A stretch of 26,992 nucleotides of DNA, taken from a virus. Its lineage: Duplodnaviria; Heunggongvirae; Uroviricota; Caudoviricetes. Position numbers and translations under genes: made by a program. Each line of letters opens with the position of its first letter. Positions within the stretch are counted from its first letter, which is position 1. The stretch lies in the IMG/VR virus record IMGVR_UViG_2778261667_000015; one strand, given 5' to 3'. The notes under the pieces are model-generated. The model searched no databases. It was not told the origin of the DNA and saw only the letters and a program-made list of their open reading frames with translations. This document shows, in pieces, positions 10,918 to 18,814 of the stretch.

Positions 10918-11197
10918 AGATTGTGGTGCTTTTTGTGGGAGTCATCCACTTACGCACTTTGTTTTGCGATGCCAGCAGTTAGCTTCTGCTGTGAAACTAT
11001 TCATGCAGCAAACCTGCACTTCACCACAATGGTTAGCATACTTTTCCTGATTAAGATTTTGCCAAATATGCTGGCCATTGTTTCATGTATTGGACCTCCT
11101 TACTTTTTATTAAAGAGATCCAATATTCACTACTCTGTCCGTATCTCTACTCAGGCATCAGCCTTCTTCGTTATCGTATACAGACGAGCGATGAATT

Positions 11198-11413
11198 TTA
11201 ATCAGTAATGATGACATTTACTGCTGCAGGACCTTTAGCACCACTCTCTATAGAGAAGGTAACCTTTTGACCTTCAAATAAGGTTCGATAATTATCATTC
11301 TGAATCGCAGAAAAATGCACAAACACATCTTTACTACCATCAACAGGAGAAATAAAGCCGAAACCTTTATCAGCGTTAAACCATTTTACTAAACCAGTCA
11401 TTTTATTTGACAT
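11198..11413 (-). CDS. cspB: Cold-shock protein, CspA family
   Basis: 71 aa [71 protein letters not shown]. Confidence 0.85.
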
Positions 11414-11713
11414 TCTACATTCCTTAACTTGAGCCTTTCGGCATAAATGGTTTGTATAACAGAAACGACTTCGTACTTAATTGGAGAGACTCAAAGAAGG
11501 AATAAGTGAATAACACCTGAAATGAGAACTGCTTTAGTAAACTACTTCGTATATCGTCTGTTCTTCAAACCGACGCAATCATTAACGCATAGTTGAACAT
11601 ATGAAGCAATGTTTATTTTAGACATCCAGCCATCTTCAACCCCATCAAAAAACTATAGCTTTCTTCAGGAACGTGTGTATAGTGCGCCAAGTTATCAGTA
11701 TTAAGGAATTTTT

Positions 11714-11926
11714 TTGTCCCGTAAAATGACAGGAATTGTCAAAACCTTTGACGGCAAAAGCGGCAAGGGTCTTATCACCCCATCCGATGGTCGTATCGAT
11801 GTCCAGCTTCATGTTTCAGCGCTCAATCTCCGCGATGCAGAAGAAATTACCACCGGATTACGCGTGGAATTTTGCCGGATAAATGGTCTGCGTGGCCCTT
11901 CAGCTGCCAATGTTTACCTTTCATGA
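11714..11926 (+). CDS. cspF: Divergent CspA-family protein
   Basis: 70 aa [39 protein letters not shown]...; starts at TTG 11714 with AAGGA 6 nt upstream (ATG alternative at 11726); divergent from cspB as in Qin. Confidence 0.75.
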
Positions 11927-11980
11927 GCTATATTAAAGCTTTAATTTCAGGCCCCATCGGATCACACATGGAGAGTTTTT

Positions 11981-12070
11981 ATGAATAACCCCGTCTGTCT
12001 TGATGACTGGTTGATTGGCTTTAAAAGCTTATGCTGTACTTTGGCCGTAATAGCTCTGCTAATAATATAA
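11981..12070 (+). CDS. Candidate 29-aa small hydrophobic protein
   Basis: Manual [32 protein letters not shown] with GGAG 7-8 nt upstream; short polar N-terminus and hydrophobic C-terminus like small membrane peptides. Unverified. Confidence 0.25.
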
Positions 12071-12218
12071 TAAGCAGACTCATTGTGTTTAGGGACATTG
12101 TACTGGAAGAAAACATTTTAAACATCAGGCAAATAACCAAGTCACCAGCTAAATAATAAGTTAACAGACATGAGTCCCGGGATGAGATTCAACATTACCA
12201 TTGCCCCATTTAAAGCAC

Positions 12219-12250
12219 AAAACCCGCTCATCAGCGGGTTTTCTACTTTT
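12219..12250 (+). terminator. Rho-independent terminator
   Basis: cccgc-tcatca-gcggg stem followed by a TTTT run; downstream of cspF. Confidence 0.5.
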
Positions 12251-12347
12251 TCTTAACGTCGGGTATACAAAGCCCATCGTTGAAAAAATTTTATCCATAT
12301 TTTTTGAAAAATGCAAGCATCACGTTACCATCTTCATTGAAAAACCT

Positions 12348-12410
12348 TTATCGTGTTACTTTTATCAATTGCACTTCAGCATAGAGTTATCCCAGACAGC
12401 ACTTTAAAGA
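12348..12410 (-). pseudogene. Diverged relic of an antiterminator Q gene 3' end
   Basis: Minus-strand translation of 12348-12386 gives ...YAEVQLIKVTR-stop, against the intact Q C-terminus ...AYAEVQLRKVTR-stop at 14042; the flanking DNA aligns at roughly 75% identity with 14042-14110. Confidence 0.5.
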
Positions 12411-12695
12411 CTTCTACATTACACACACCTTGTCTCCCCTTCTCGTCATATCTGCAAGACCGATATGCATGACGCAGTACATACGCTGAACTGCTTTATC
12501 CATCTGCATATTCTAGTGCTAAAGCGACTTCAGTAGCAGAAGCAAAATTCTGCTACTGTGCCAAACAGGAGTAAACGTCATTTTATGTAATGTTGATTGA
12601 GTGGTCATAGTATCACCTCAATAACAACTCTCCGCCCTATCATTGAAAGCATATCTGCTATAATTAAAAAGCCACTTAACATCAGGACTTCAAAC

Positions 12696-12881
12696 ATGAC
12701 TTCAAATCAATCTGAAAACGAAATAGTTAATACTGTCAAAAAATATGCATCATGTGCTGACGATGCTTTGCAGGGAGGCAAAGAAAACGTTAAAGATAAA
12801 TTTAGAAATTATCCACTGACTAGCGTGGTGGTTGCTCTAAGCATAGGGTTAACGCTTGGTTTTATTATTGGCAGAAAATAA
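12696..12881 (+). CDS. DUF883 (ElaB/YqjD/YgaM)-like C-tail-anchored small protein
   Basis: ORF 12597..12881; from ATG 12696 it gives 61 aa ending ...FRNYPLTSVVVALSIGLTLGFIIGRK, the characteristic DUF883 C-terminal anchor. Confidence 0.5.
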   Translation: MTSNQSENEIVNTVKKYASCADDALQGGKENVKDKFRNYPLTSVVVALSIGLTLGFIIGRK

Positions 12882-12939
12882 TCTTAAGCCTCCCATAAGT
12901 CGTACACAATCACATCTGCCAATTAATGTTCCATTAGTA

Positions 12940-12965
12940 AAAAACCACCTCCTGTGGAGGTGGTT
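12940..12965 (-). terminator. Rho-independent terminator, probably bidirectional
   Basis: ccacctcc-tgt-ggaggtgg stem with AAAAAA on the plus-strand 5' side (T-run on the minus strand); 53 nt downstream of the 39-aa minus ORF and 60 nt downstream of the plus-strand DUF883 gene. Confidence 0.5.
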
Positions 12966-13017
12966 TAAGGATAGCAACAAAACACAACCTACTTTAAACG
13001 GCTATATTCTGCTATAT

Positions 13018-13137
13018 CTAAATAATAGGATCTCTTTTATCATCCGGTGAAAAAGGGTTCAATGGTTGCCCCTCATCAGGACGCTCAACGGGCTCATCAT
13101 CAGGCTTACGGTCATCAAAATCTGGATGTTCTGACAT
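13018..13137 (-). CDS. Candidate 39-aa acidic, proline-rich small protein
   Basis: Codon-by-codon manual translation: MSEHPDFDDRKPDDEPVERPDEGQPLNPFSPDDKRDPII; GGGTGGA SD-like sequence upstream; terminator follows. Confidence 0.3.
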   Translation of the reverse strand: MSEHPDFDDRKPDDEPVERPDEGQPLNPFSPDDKRDPII

Positions 13138-13172
13138 ATTCCACCCTAGTATTTTTATGCAGGAAAGATTAT

Positions 13173-13280
13173 TTACTCTTTCCGGTTGTCTTTTTTATTA
13201 TCCTTACCCTTACTATCCTCATTGTTTTTATTCCTGTCATGAGATTTTTCATTTGAATCACTTACATATAATGTATTCAT
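13173..13280 (-). CDS. Candidate 35-aa highly charged, lysine-rich small protein
   Basis: Manual translation MNTLYVSDSNEKSHDRNKNNEDSKGKDNKKDNRKE; GGAG 7 nt upstream of the ATG; a perfect TATAAT sits ~45 nt further upstream on the same strand. Confidence 0.3.
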   Translation of the reverse strand: MNTLYVSDSNEKSHDRNKNNEDSKGKDNKKDNRKE

Positions 13281-13314
13281 GGGGACTCCAGTTTTTTAAC
13301 AGCACAATGCTGTA

Positions 13315-13360
13315 TCTGTAATTATAGATGCAATTAATCATTATGATATGTATGTTTCAT
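13315..13360 (-). promoter_or_regulatory. Putative sigma70 promoter for the small-ORF pair
   Basis: Minus strand reads ...attaattgcatcTATAATtacag...; the -35 is weak or undefined. Confidence 0.25.
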
Positions 13361-14041
13361 GCACAAATCAGAAACGCATCTAGTGCTTTAATTAATATGG
13401 ATTTTATTGCTGTAGATTTACAAAAATTTTCATAATTAACCAGCAATATAAGACAAATATCTCATAACATGAGGAAAATCAAGCTCATTTAAAGCAATTT
13501 ATAATTTTCATCCTACTGTTTTCCCTGCACTGCCAACACAAGTTTCATCGCAACACTCTGACAAGACACCTATAAAATCAGTTTCGTTATCACCTTAATT
13601 TTCTTCATGGGTAACAAACCGGTAATACATCGATAGCCAGATTTCCGGCGTAAGCCATTTATTTGCAGCCTGATTGATGCGCGTTACTGTTACCTCTTCC
13701 CTGCATCAGGATGGCTTCTCCAGATGATATGGTTAATCACACTGGAACATTCACGCATAACCGTTTCCTTCATATCCTGCCGTTTTAGCATGTCTTTTCC
13801 CCTTCTTGTTAATATCAATAACTAACACAAATCTAAAAAAGCCAGCAATGTAAAAAAACTGCATTCACGGCAACCATAATGGTTACCGTTCTGCACAAAG
13901 TTTATGTCCACAAAAAAACCACTCTGCGCGGCTTATTGATATTTTCCACAGGTATGCATATAAGGCTCATCATTGGAAAACTCTTTGCACGTTTCCTTAG
14001 AAAATACAATCGTTATGTCGCCATCGTTCGGTGAAAATCAT

Positions 14042-14794
14042 TTATCTCGTCACTTTTCTTAATTGCACCTCAGCATATGCTTCTTCCTGCCAGCACTTTG
14101 TAACCAGTTTATCAATGACATCTGCATATCCTTTGTACCACTGATAATCCGTCAGGTCTGGTACCAGCTTCTGGACATGACACCGCGCCAGTGTCGTTGG
14201 TAAACGACTAAACCGGTTTCCATTGCAACGCCCACAAACCTTATAAACAGGCGTGCTATGAAGCCGGGTTCTTTTTTCATCCAGGACAATACCTTTCCCC
14301 TTACACCCTCTGCACGCTGTGCTGACTTCTCCCTTACCATGGCAATGCTGACATAGTTCCTTCACCCACTCTTCCTTGATAACAGATTCCCCACTTCTGG
14401 AGTGTTTCACCACTTCGCGCAATACATTATGAAATCCAGTACCAGCACAATACTCACAGCGAGCCTTACTTGCCGCAGACCTGGAATAATCAGCAAAGGC
14501 AAAATTCACAAGGTAAGGGATGATCTGTAACCGGATTTCTTCACTCAATTTGTTCAATGTCGGATTATCCATTGCCATCGCGTAATTGAGCAGACCTTCA
14601 ATCGCAAACTGAGGATCCTGAACACCAACTTTTGCCAGGAATAAGGCAAAACCAAGCGGAGCTTTCGACTGCACCATCCCCTGCGCAGCCATCACATCTG
14701 TTATTGTTAAACCACCCGAGCCTGTCGCCGGTGCGTCATCACTCAATTTTGGAGATTTTGGGGAGTAATATTTTGGTAAAGCTTCAAGGTTCAT
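14042..14794 (-). CDS. quuQ: Late-gene antitermination protein Q
   Basis: 250 aa with multiple CxxC zinc-binding motifs (CEYCAGTG, CQHCHGKG, CRGCKGKG, CGRCNG) typical of Q antiterminators; ATG at 14794. Confidence 0.85.
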   Translation of the reverse strand: MNLEALPKYYSPKSPKLSDDAPATGSGGLTITDVMAAQGMVQSKAPLGFALFLAKVGVQDPQFAIEGLLNYAMAMDNPTLNKLSEEIRLQIIPYLVNFAFADYSRSAASKARCEYCAGTGFHNVLREVVKHSRSGESVIKEEWVKELCQHCHGKGEVSTACRGCKGKGIVLDEKRTRLHSTPVYKVCGRCNGNRFSRLPTTLARCHVQKLVPDLTDYQWYKGYADVIDKLVTKCWQEEAYAEVQLRKVTR

Positions 14795-14807
14795 GCTCGT
14801 TCTCCAC

Positions 14808-15857
14808 TTACGCCAGTACGCCTATTGCCAGCGCACGATCGATAAAACGAAATATCAGCTCCAGCTGGGAGCCATACTTCTCTTCAAATGCCACGGTATT
14901 CGCATGCAGCTCGTCGTGATGCTTTCTGCACAAAGGCAACACAAAGAGATCATGTGCTTTGGTTCCCATTCCGCCCTGCCCGTGACCAATCAGATGATGC
15001 GGATCGTCGGCTGGCATACCGCAGCAAGCACACGGCTGTGTCTTAACCCAGCGTGTGTACTTTTCATTAACCCAACGGTGACGTTTAGGCAGCTTCATGA
15101 AAGATTCCGGAGACTCTGGATCAACGGTGATGCTTACCACCGTCTTTTCCTGTGATGGGTTTTGTTGCTGGTGGGCGTGAGGCAACGGTGCAAGATTTTT
15201 TGTGCGCTGTTTCAATATGCTGGTGGCGGTCTGCTCTCCCGGTACGATGTCGCTTTCGCGGTACACCGAGCAGTTTTTTTCCGCTGGTAATCCCAGCGAG
15301 CGACGTAATACCGCTTCCGGTAGCGCGTCCGCCACCTGATTGCGGACCGCCCACCAGGATAATTCAGCCAGAGATAATTCACGCTCCTGCGTACCGCTTA
15401 TTGCGTGACCGATGACGTCAATCATCCATGCTGACAGGTTTTGATGAGCAAGTTGCTCGAGTGATTCGGATGTCTGGTCACGCAGCTGGTTGTCGCAGTG
15501 CCAGCACAACACCATTGCGCCGGTACCATAACGGTGAATAACGGTTTCGCTGTGATGATAATCGCCGTGTGGCCACTGGCAGGATTTAATATGGCGCAAC
15601 AGCCAGTCAGACAATGCACCAGCACCACCAGCAGCACGAATTACCCGTGCGTTACTGAAAAACGGCAGCAATGTTTTGTCTTCCACCAGCGGCTGGCGAA
15701 CGGCAGGAACGACCCCGGACGGCAGATTACGCATGCTTTTCGGTTCCGGCTCCACCAGTACCCGGGTATTGTGGAATACCGGCATGGATTCACGGCCCGG
15801 CTTAACGACCACCAGCCCGAGTTCCGGTACCAGAACAGGTCGAAGTAATACCCGCAC
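14808..15857 (-). CDS. ydfU: YdfU-like (DUF968) protein
   Basis: 349-aa ORF; GTG start at 15857 preceded by GGAGG at 4 nt and coupled to the upstream ORF stop; Cys/His-rich C-terminus (CACCGMPADDPHH...CRKHHDELH). Confidence 0.7.
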   Translation of the reverse strand: MRVLLRPVLVPELGLVVVKPGRESMPVFHNTRVLVEPEPKSMRNLPSGVVPAVRQPLVEDKTLLPFFSNARVIRAAGGAGALSDWLLRHIKSCQWPHGDYHHSETVIHRYGTGAMVLCWHCDNQLRDQTSESLEQLAHQNLSAWMIDVIGHAISGTQERELSLAELSWWAVRNQVADALPEAVLRRSLGLPAEKNCSVYRESDIVPGEQTATSILKQRTKNLAPLPHAHQQQNPSQEKTVVSITVDPESPESFMKLPKRHRWVNEKYTRWVKTQPCACCGMPADDPHHLIGHGQGGMGTKAHDLFVLPLCRKHHDELHANTVAFEEKYGSQLELIFRFIDRALAIGVLA

Positions 15858-17442: not shown

Positions 17443-18108
17443 TCATTCCTGCCCTTCTTTACCGTAGTGGAGTTGACCAATTTTGATTAGAGGGCGTCCC
17501 TGAGATTTGCGGTGTAGATTGGTATCGCGCAGTGAATACACGCAGCCACAATATTCCTGCTGATAGAATTGTTCGCGCTTGCTGATTTCAATCATGCGGG
17601 AAGAGCCGCCCTGCTTTCGCCAGTTATAATCCCAGTACACCATGCCCGGATAATACGCGACGGCTCGCCGTCCACAGTCGTTAACCTGCTGCATATTTTT
17701 CCAGCGTGAAATGCCCAGTGAGCTACTGATCACACTGAAACCATTTTCAGCGGCATACAGCGCAGTCCGCTCAAAACGCATGTCAAAACACATGGTACAA
17801 CGGATCCCTCGTTCAGGCTCCCATTCCATTCCTTTGGCTCGCTCAAACCAGTTGTCTGTGTCGTAATCAGCATCAATAAATGGCACGCCGTGTTGTTTAG
17901 CAAAGCGAATATTCTCATCCTTACGAATTAAATACTCTTTCTGAGGATGAATGTTCGGGTTGTAGAAAAAGATGGTGTAGTCGATTCCCGAGGCCTGAAG
18001 CGCCTCCATCACTTCACCGGAACATGGAGCACAGCAAGAGTGCAGTAATAGTTTTTTTGCCCCGTTTGGGAGCTCCAATTTGGGGCGTTTGAAATCAGCA
18101 ACAGTCAT
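17443..18108 (-). CDS. queH: QueH-like (DUF208) epoxyqueuosine reductase
   Basis: ORF 17443..18222 (GTG start); from ATG 18108: [30 protein letters not shown]...NPNIHP...[38 protein letters not shown]...QEYCGCVYS, matching the conserved blocks I recall for QueH. Confidence 0.6.
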
Positions 18109-18161: not shown

Positions 18162-18464
18162 CTATCGGAAACAGATGTCTAAATCTGGTAATGTCTGCTT
18201 TTGATGCAAAGCAGACAACCACGGCAGCGCACGAAAATCAGCGATAATGTCGGGATTAATAATCGGGTGACGTCCATCACATAGCGAATGTTCCTCTTTC
18301 CTGATATCGCTAAATATCGACCATTCGTCATTCTTATCGAACCAGAGCATGCGACTGCCACAGCACATGTCGAGAATGGTAGCCGATGTACTCACAGCAT
18401 CACCTCCCGATAATTCCCCTGATAAAACGTCAGAACACGCTGCATAACTTCGCTCTTCCGGCAC
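18162..18464 (-). pseudogene. Possible N-terminal fragment of a SAM-dependent methyltransferase
   Basis: 100-aa ORF (GTG start) with a motif-I-like ILDMCCGSRMLWF, ending far short of a full methyltransferase; overlaps the neighbouring ORFs at both ends. Confidence 0.3.
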
Positions 18465-18814
18465 TCGCGACAGATTATGTTTAGACGACTGTCGTAGCGG
18501 CGTATTTCTCCATCAGGTAATGACCAGATAAGGTCCGGATCAACCACAGCAGGTTTCTTCACCTTTGCCCTCGAGAGTTTTTTGCGGGCGTTTTGCCAGT
18601 CCTTACGCGCCTGTTCAGACGGGAATAACCCGTAGCCGGAGTTGTATACATCGCCACTGGCTACCAGCTCTCTGACAAGAACGCTCATCAGATATCTAGT
18701 CGCACCTGTTTTAGCTTCCAGTTGCCGTAACGTCTCACGACCGCTCTGGCGCACGAGTTCCACCACCTGCCCTTTAATTTTTTCCCGCTCTTCTTGTGTA
18801 AAAACTTTTGCCAC
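18392..18814 (-). CDS. Hypothetical 140-aa protein downstream of the replication gene
   Basis: ORF MAKVFTQEEREKIKGQVVELVRQSGRETLRQLEAKTGATRYLM...; its 3' end overlaps the methyltransferase-fragment ORF, so the pair may be one frameshifted gene. Confidence 0.4.
   Translation of the reverse strand: MAKVFTQEEREKIKGQVVELVRQSGRETLRQLEAKTGATRYLMSVLVRELVASGDVYNSGYGLFPSEQARKDWQNARKKLSRAKVKKPAVVDPDLIWSLPDGEIRRYDSRLNIICRECRKSEVMQRVLTFYQGNYREVML

Follow-up and report, generated by a model that had tools for sequence, protein, structure and literature searches.

Small genes and accessory slots of lambdoid prophages

Phage morons are independently expressed accessory genes inserted in a phage operon (PMC2629481). 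Here we compare this and other described systems with a small locus in the virus record IMGVR_UViG_2778261667_000015, a stretch of 26,992 nucleotides (the window) that represents a Qin-like lambdoid prophage of E. coli with its early-right and late genes on the minus strand. The locus consists of two tiny minus-strand open reading frames (ORFs), ORF1 of 35 and ORF2 of 39 amino acids, found exactly where an earlier note made from the letters of the DNA had placed them, in AT-rich orphan cargo between the antiterminator gene Q and the lysis genes. We give about even chances to the reading that the locus is a moron-type minus-strand unit in transplanted cargo and that ORF2 is a real microprotein gene.

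The cargo is like a moron in that it occurs in few related prophages and is missing at the same site in others. Its base composition differs from that of its flanks, and it has its own intrinsic terminator and small genes unrelated to phage growth. It differs in that the candidate for a promoter of its own is a TATAAT at chance level, and in that it appears to combine a decayed ren gene (psi-ren) with an early-region slot between Q and a duplicated PR'-like module, which is not a simple one-gene insertion. The unit fits the moron definition on three of four features, the promoter being a candidate only.

In the same type of prophage, the Qin small proteins YnfU and YnfS have been detected experimentally (10.1101/511675). 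Like the genes of these proteins, ORF1 and ORF2 are tiny ORFs in accessory parts of the prophage, missed by standard annotation and known mainly by a Shine-Dalgarno (SD) sequence and a start codon. YnfR/YnfQ are annotated in the prophage studied here, and a YnfS-family gene sits about 1 kb from the unit (11981..12070, plus strand). The product of this gene is the 29-amino-acid WP_120795389.1, hypothetical according to PGAP, which carries the Pfam domain PF23697 (YnfS); the gene is kept beside cspF in K-12 Qin. YnfU and YnfS, however, have the support of ribosome profiling or tagging and occur in thousands of genomes, whereas ORF1 and ORF2 are read from sequence only, are carried by 40 of 5,426 complete E. 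coli genomes (0.7%) and have no relatives.

Phage lambda has a tR2/nin region downstream of ren. Intact phages show the order ren, variable cargo, ninB, and the cargo after ren comprises two hypothetical ORFs in BP-4795 and PD-lambda-1 in PhiR26_1. In the latter phage (L038, 26-1528) this defence gene lies directly downstream of ren on the opposite strand. The locus studied here resembles such a lambdoid ren slot in its succession of a same-strand ren homologue, accessory DNA and a terminator. It differs in that ren is a pseudogene, in that the block lies downstream of Q and not between P/ren and ninB, and in that the cargo has no sequence similarity to the cargo of PhiR26_1 or BP-4795.

Two more distant systems share single traits with the unit. 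SgrS/SgrT is a dual-function small RNA (sRNA) that also encodes a small protein, and the unit is similar to it in having a predicted short transcript, a structured 3' end with a U tail and an ORF of about 40 codons; unlike SgrS/SgrT, it shows no homology or Rfam match, and the likeness is one of layout. Ocr and ArdA are small acidic phage inhibitors that act as DNA mimics. ORF2 is likewise phage-borne and encodes a very acidic peptide (isoelectric point, pI, 4.1; net charge about -8), but this peptide is far shorter, proline-rich and predicted to be unstructured, whereas Ocr and ArdA are folded and DNA-shaped, and there is no sequence similarity.

The short-protein homology search that the earlier note had proposed left both peptides as strict orphans. 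Peptides of fewer than 40 amino acids were searched with their natural in-frame upstream residues added. For ORF2, a word-indexed search of 5.8 billion clusters, phmmer run exhaustively on 1.84 billion representatives and tblastn against six-frame translated phages yielded nothing but its own variants; the same large-scale protein searches and tblastn against phages likewise returned only own variants of ORF1. Neither peptide had a match in Pfam, PHROGs, NCBIfam, PADLOC or the PDB; against defence and anti-defence models and solved inhibitors the peptides gave zero hits in PADLOC and zero in the PDB, and a literature search on the PhiR/HannyBb phages found nothing relevant. With no family match and no homologue in billions of proteins, the stress, regulatory or antitoxin-like role suggested in the earlier note gained no support. 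The unit belongs to no described protein or RNA family. It is an orphan addition to the small genes of prophage cargo, and its mechanism is unsurprising.

If ORF2 is expressed, an orphan and very young microprotein joins the accessory repertoire of lambdoid prophages, and the locus would offer a convenient case for studying how cargo slots in prophages create and relocate tiny genes; the same cargo also carries a truncated ElaB/YqjD-like tail-anchored protein. Practical value is limited by the rarity of the element and by the absence of a comparative signal that could be extracted at present.

Coding signal of ORF2 and the predicted minus-strand transcript

We scored ORFs by codon log-odds; the score was derived from 5,051 codons in long genes of the window and corrected for the base composition of each ORF. 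The gnsB and ynfN rows of the comparison were set aside, as their transferred coordinates were out of frame. ORF2 obtained +0.147 per codon, the top score of its six frames. This is higher than the score of every annotated small gene in the window (cspI, cspF, essD, rem and others) and of all 130 spurious small ATG ORFs there, the maximum of which was 0.116. Shuffled versions of its own sequence reached the score in 0 of 3000 mononucleotide and 1 of 400 dinucleotide shuffles, and the bona fide gene cspF behaved likewise. G or C stands at codon position 1 in 27 of the 39 codons and T at position 3 in 20; frame +2 holds 11 stops, the reading frame none. ORF2 is also a 44% GC island in neighbouring DNA of 29-36% GC, and its SD and ATG fall precisely where the sole GC-enriched, 3-periodic segment begins. 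By codon score and periodicity, ORF2 behaves as a genuine coding sequence. The peptide contains 13 Asp+Glu and 8 Pro, and its AlphaFold2 model is a coil (pTM 0.13), consistent with the acidic, proline-rich composition. These features make ORF2 probably a real gene for an acidic, disordered microprotein, and a very young one.

The earlier note had also attributed a plausible SD to each ORF, and we found both. The predicted duplex with the 3' end of 16S rRNA amounts to -7.3 kcal/mol for ORF2 (UAGGGUGGA) and to -5.9 kcal/mol for ORF1, placing them in the top 3.7% and the top 9%, respectively, among the window's 135 small ATG ORFs. Local RNA structure showed no significant occlusion of the ORF2 ribosome-binding site. 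The ORF lengths by themselves prove nothing, as they are chance-expected in this AT-rich DNA: dinucleotide shuffles of the 1.55-kb insert gave 5.4 ATG ORFs of at least 35 amino acids, and 7 were seen. In the same shuffles, two such ORFs with equally strong SDs had a P of ~0.03, and a same-strand strong-SD pair less than 100 nt apart had a P of ~0.001-0.004 (~0.02-0.07 allowing for the 27-kb window). Chance is thus an unlikely source of this arrangement. The two ORFs had been presented as one pair. Their tandem layout is real, but the partners are unequal, ORF2 being gene-like and ORF1 having poor coding statistics.

At the 3' end, the clean stem-loop and T-run reported just downstream of ORF2 turned out to be a real terminator. 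Its core stem, CCACCUCC/GGAGGUGG (12945-12963, 8-bp GC), is followed by U6 on the minus strand (12939-12944) and by U3 only on the plus strand. A consensus scanner missed this terminator, since pairing of the stem can continue into the U-run; on the minus strand from 13912 to 12966 the scanner found no further strong terminator. The same terminator hairpin also occurs elsewhere as an unrelated terminator. To the features listed in the earlier note we add a second hairpin, at 12970-13018, which contains six G.U pairs and therefore forms in minus-strand RNA alone. It has a folding energy of -19.4 kcal/mol on the minus strand (z -5.7; 0 of 200 shuffles) versus -4.3 kcal/mol on the plus strand (z -0.6). 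This G.U hairpin is the best direct sequence evidence for a minus-strand transcript ending here, and a minus-strand transcription unit with a predicted end at 12939-12966 is well supported. The perfect inverted repeat around the ORF1 stop codon folds in minus-strand RNA (-9.1 kcal/mol, z -4.8) and on the plus strand too, and a small hairpin where the transcript is predicted to begin folds no better than shuffles (z -1.1).

A moron-type unit at this place would have arisen when about 1.35 kb of AT-rich cargo moved, together with its now-decayed ren, between Q and the duplicated PR'-like module of a Qin-like prophage. The transcript would be ~375-385 nt long and start near 13313-13315, read-through from upstream being the alternative source, and it would end at the terminator 12939-12966, after the 19-bp hairpin that probably protects its 3' end. 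ORF2 would then be translated to the acidic, proline-rich, disordered peptide of 39 amino acids, which, if acting at all, would bind a larger and probably basic partner. Promoter activity, translation and any function of the unit are what we infer. The features of the locus and of its surroundings are listed in Table 1.

Table 1. Positions of the features of the locus, the cargo and its flanks in the window
Feature	Position	Strand	Remarks
Candidate -10, TATAAT	13321..13326	-	Without usable -35 and without TG extension
Small hairpin, ACAGCA-UUG-UGCUGU	13299..13313	-	At predicted transcript 5' end; -6 kcal/mol, z -1.1
ORF1 SD, GGAG	13286..13289	-	Spacing to ATG 5 nt
ORF1, 35 amino acids, MNTLYVSDSNEKSHDRNKNNEDSKGKDNKKDNRKE	13173..13280	-	51% A, 29% GC, pI 8.1; coding doubtful
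Perfect 7-bp inverted repeat	13162..13183	both	Around ORF1 stop codon; folds
ORF2 SD-like sequence, UAGGGUGGA	13140..13148	-	Upstream of ORF2 ATG
ORF2, 39 amino acids, MSEHPDFDDRKPDDEPVERPDEGQPLNPFSPDDKRDPII	13018..13137	-	Probable microprotein gene (codon score, periodicity)
19-bp hairpin with six G.U pairs	12970..13018	-	Begins at ORF2 stop codon; only in minus-strand RNA
Intrinsic terminator, CCACCUCC-ACA-GGAGGUGG then U6	12939..12966	-	Shared with convergent plus-strand gene
Antisense ORF, 69 amino acids (64 from ATG 13062)	13047..13256	+	Interpreted as a mirror artefact of T-richness on the plus strand
AT-rich orphan cargo, ~1.35 kb	12406..13760		37% GC; missing from Qin prophages of the K-12 type
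Decayed ren gene, Ren residues ~29-93	13522..13690	-	In-frame stops, 7-amino-acid gap, frameshift
DUF883-like tail-anchored protein, 61 amino acids	12696..12881	+	phrog_11629, E 1.8e-46; converges on the terminator of ORF2
PR'-like copy A, TTGCAT-17-TAAAAT then AACGAT	12276..12316	-	Identical to K-12 Qin; downstream of the unit in minus-strand sense
PR'-like copy B, TTGTAT-17-AAAGAG	13969..14009	-	Adjoins intact Q; AAAGAG at the -10 position

Natural variation and competing readings

Besides the 40 E. coli genomes, in all of which the locus is at least 99% identical, we found copies in two phages, 15 IMG/VR contigs and 5 metagenome contigs; none of the GTDB species representatives carries it. 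Bacterial carriers include ECOR13, from which PhiR63_1 derives, and an O121:H19 strain. Some contigs had appeared '95%' identical, and their divergence is confined to DNA outside the cargo. The DUF883-like neighbour, tried as an anchor for distant loci, failed, being itself an orphan. Among ~27 aligned copies the cargo contains ~32 sites with single-nucleotide polymorphisms (SNPs), and the changes in the DUF883-like gene are one at a second and three at third codon positions. Independent gene callers predicted the two ORFs on over 1000 contigs and the antisense ORF on none. The phage records HannyBb and PhiR63_1 list both mini-ORFs as hypothetical proteins, in annotations that call almost every small ORF.

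A number of observations weigh against the reading of the locus as a moron-type unit with a real ORF2 gene. The candidate promoter is weak and at chance level. The earlier note had seen a perfect TATAAT upstream of the ORFs; the sequence is present at 13321-13326 (minus strand), but as a promoter it has no acceptable -35. The best one, ATATCA, matches at 3 of 6 positions, and a promoter scanner makes no call. TATAAT is as frequent as chance predicts, both in the window (11 seen versus 13.8 expected) and in the cargo (4 versus 2.7). Of the compact minus-strand unit described in the earlier note, the part marked by the strand-specific hairpin and U6 is thus well supported, but the promoter part stays at chance level. 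The core of the ORF2 SD, GGUGG, is just 3 nt from the ATG, a short spacing. The codon score of ORF1, -0.37, is in the bottom 3%, and comparison with its own shuffles was not significant (P~0.08-0.14), in a test of low sensitivity for foreign genes rich in AT, the neighbouring DUF883-like gene also being not significant.

Comparative data add to these points. Near and distant searches of E. coli genomes, phages, GTDB, metagenome and IMG/VR contigs found no diverged copies; within the cargo, identity among true copies never falls below 99%, too high to reveal purifying selection. All four SNPs in the ORFs are non-synonymous (S23G, S9L and D8Y in ORF1; D36E in ORF2). There are also rare frameshift alleles, namely a 2-bp deletion in ORF1 (L004), the loss of 1 nt from an A-run in ORF1 (P0043/L037) and a C-terminal frameshift in ORF2 (P0002), each at a repeat or homopolymer and each in single assemblies. 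We discounted the L004 deletion as a case against ORF1, that assembly having several other single-base indels. The variant pattern is compatible with neutrality, though the counts are much too low for a decision. Across the ORF1/ORF2 region PGAP has no annotation, and the cargo holds decayed remnants (psi-ren, a truncated 64-amino-acid gene and psi-Q), so that the ORFs could be relics too.

These points carry the alternative that survives best, which we consider distinctly less probable than a microprotein gene though still a serious competitor: the region would be non-coding, decaying recombination debris in AT-rich cargo, neither ORF would be a gene and the SD-like motifs would be fortuitous. 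The terminator would be real, either an early terminator of the tR2 kind that came along with ren or a terminator/insulator of the DUF883-like gene. ORFs of this length are chance-expected on the T-poor strand, a second minus-strand frame (13169..13261) is open over ORF1, and ORF1 is 51% A. The exclusively non-synonymous SNPs, the frameshift alleles, the pseudogene-filled neighbourhood (psi-ren, psi-Q and a chimeric 33-amino-acid ORF), the empty PGAP annotation and the orphan state of both peptides all agree with debris. Debris accounts poorly, however, for the codon score of ORF2, higher than that of every spurious ORF in the window and of its own shuffles, for the rarity of a tandem strong-SD pair (P~0.001-0.004), and for an SD and ATG that coincide exactly with the onset of the one segment that is both GC-enriched and 3-periodic. 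For ORF1 the balance is different. That it encodes a functional protein is doubtful; it could be a low-complexity leader peptide under weak constraint, or else an A-rich 5' leader open by chance. A single frameshifted gene made of ORF1 and ORF2 was ruled out, as the frameshifted reading is full of stops.

A functional RNA with incidental or secondary ORFs would be a different kind of product, and we regard it as improbable. It would be a small or dual-function RNA, or an sRNA derived from the 3' end (G.U hairpin plus terminator), acting by base-pairing or protein sequestration. The minus-strand 3' end has the terminator, long U tail and structured 3' region by which sRNAs are recognised; this structure is strand-specific and highly stable, and its U6 tail is of a type common among Hfq-binding sRNAs. 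Folding of the entire 379-nt RNA is more stable than that of shuffles (z -3.7), and ORF1, read directly, is an A-rich tract rich in ARN/GGA. Against this, Rfam gave no match to the region near any gathering score and only noise at E of at most 10, and neither a seed nor a target emerged as a candidate. No variant was seen in the hairpin region among 27+ copies, all of which are too similar to one another to inform on covariation. An RNA-only role would also leave the codon periodicity of ORF2 unexplained.

Slightly less probable still, in our estimate, is a more specific proposal in which ORF2 is expressed from the ren-proximal slot and lineage-restricted, possibly de novo. It would inhibit a nucleic-acid-binding or defence protein of the host or of a rival phage by charge mimicry, or the transcript would be a dual-function RNA combining a 3'-end sRNA with translated ORF2.

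The earlier note was right that a listed plus-strand ORF lies antisense to both mini-ORFs, and it is the sole longer ORF there. That it is the real gene (13047/13062..13256), encoding a type I toxin-like membrane peptide with the minus-strand transcript as its antisense regulator, is very improbable. Its length, the greatest in the stretch, its hydrophobic C-terminal half (a C-terminal helix in 64-69 amino acids), three natural variants of which one is synonymous and one stop-to-stop, and a hokD elsewhere in the same prophage speak for it, but we rejected it on frame score, signals and gene-caller behaviour: its codon score of -0.19 is the third of six frames and lower than those of the ORF1 and ORF2 frames, its SD is weak at the ATG (-4.5) and missing at the GTG, it starts directly after a terminator with no promoter-like site upstream on the plus strand, no gene caller called it in a collection of 15 billion proteins, it has no family match in Pfam, PHROGs, NCBIfam or PADLOC, and its hydrophobicity is the expected mirror of an A-rich opposite strand. 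Of the marks of a hok/sok-type gene, it shows neither the best coding frame with signals of its own nor homology to a known toxin family.

Origin of the cargo and neighbouring features

The prophage has the order DUF968 gene (14808..15857), Q/ydfT antiterminator (14042..14794), ~2 kb of AT-rich DNA, cspF, cspB, the holin gene essD, ydfR, lysozyme and Rz. In a comparison with K-12 DH1, the Qin-like parts were 11000-12405 and 13958-15000, with an insert between them at 12406-13957; in K-12-type Qin, window position 12405 joins straight to the Q module. The cargo has 37% GC, falling to 27-33% around 13100-13500, and Q and the upstream genes have 44-59%. On either side of the insert stands one copy of a diverged direct repeat, a module comprising the 3' end of Q plus downstream sequence (12333-12405 and 14027-14099, 77% identical). 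Overall, the duplicated module around the cargo occupies 12265-12405 and 13958-14099 on the minus strand.

Each module holds a PR'-like sequence. Copy A keeps a good hairpin (12219-12242) and a decayed Q C-terminus (...AEVQLIKVTR, then a stop), which constitutes psi-Q; we take its AACGAT to match lambda PR's sigma-dependent pause element. The hairpin of copy B (13912-13934) is weak. With copy A intact and AAAGAG at the -10 position of copy B, the sequences suggest that the late promoter in use lies ~1.7 kb from Q, beyond the cargo, so that the mini-ORFs would not simply be Q-dependent late cargo. The Q-to-lysis slot assigned to them in the earlier note is physically correct, but the unit lies upstream of the second, better-preserved PR'-like copy and is not simple late-operon cargo.

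The ren remnant possibly reaches ~13760 and shares ~75% DNA identity with ren of 136 lambdoid phages; it lies downstream of Q, far from the usual O-P-ren position. A 32-bp deletion polymorphism within it (13635-13666) is found in three IMG/VR contigs (L010, L016 and L022). In minus-strand order, psi-ren is followed by 240 nt of very AT-rich DNA, ORF1, ORF2, the hairpin and the terminator, and the unit looks like a rare, transplanted 'downstream-of-ren' accessory slot. Similarity to another Q-type phage (L024) runs through the first 10 codons of the 64-amino-acid gene of that phage and ends at ~13760. The 33-amino-acid ORF at 13690-13791 (minus strand) has a strong SD, GAAGGGG, and its first 10 codons are homologous to this PGAP-annotated 64-amino-acid post-Q gene (WP_001355891.1). 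With its remainder unrelated, it appears to be a chimeric remnant at a recombination junction.

The gene of the 61-amino-acid protein on the other side of the terminator has an extended -10 (TGcTATAAT, 12656-12664) and the SD CAGGA. Its product has an ElaB/YqjD-like C-terminal membrane anchor, is DUF883-like according to one source, has no Pfam hit and showed no relatives beyond its own cluster of at least 90% identity.

Elsewhere in the window, the C-terminus of a DUF977 gene (18392..18814) is Ren-like at 18422-18481 on the minus strand (NIICRECRKSEVMQRVLTFY versus NLIFKECRQSAAMKRVLAVY, 55% over 20 amino acids), which hints that this gene takes the ren position in this phage. A full-length Rfam match to the cspA thermoregulator (11151-11574, minus strand; 159.7 bits, E 7.6e-43) spans cspB together with the 5' leader of this gene. 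Finally, PGAP annotates an epoxyqueuosine reductase QueH at 17443-18108 (minus strand) in the early region, beside a truncated methyltransferase, an unusual metabolic cargo.

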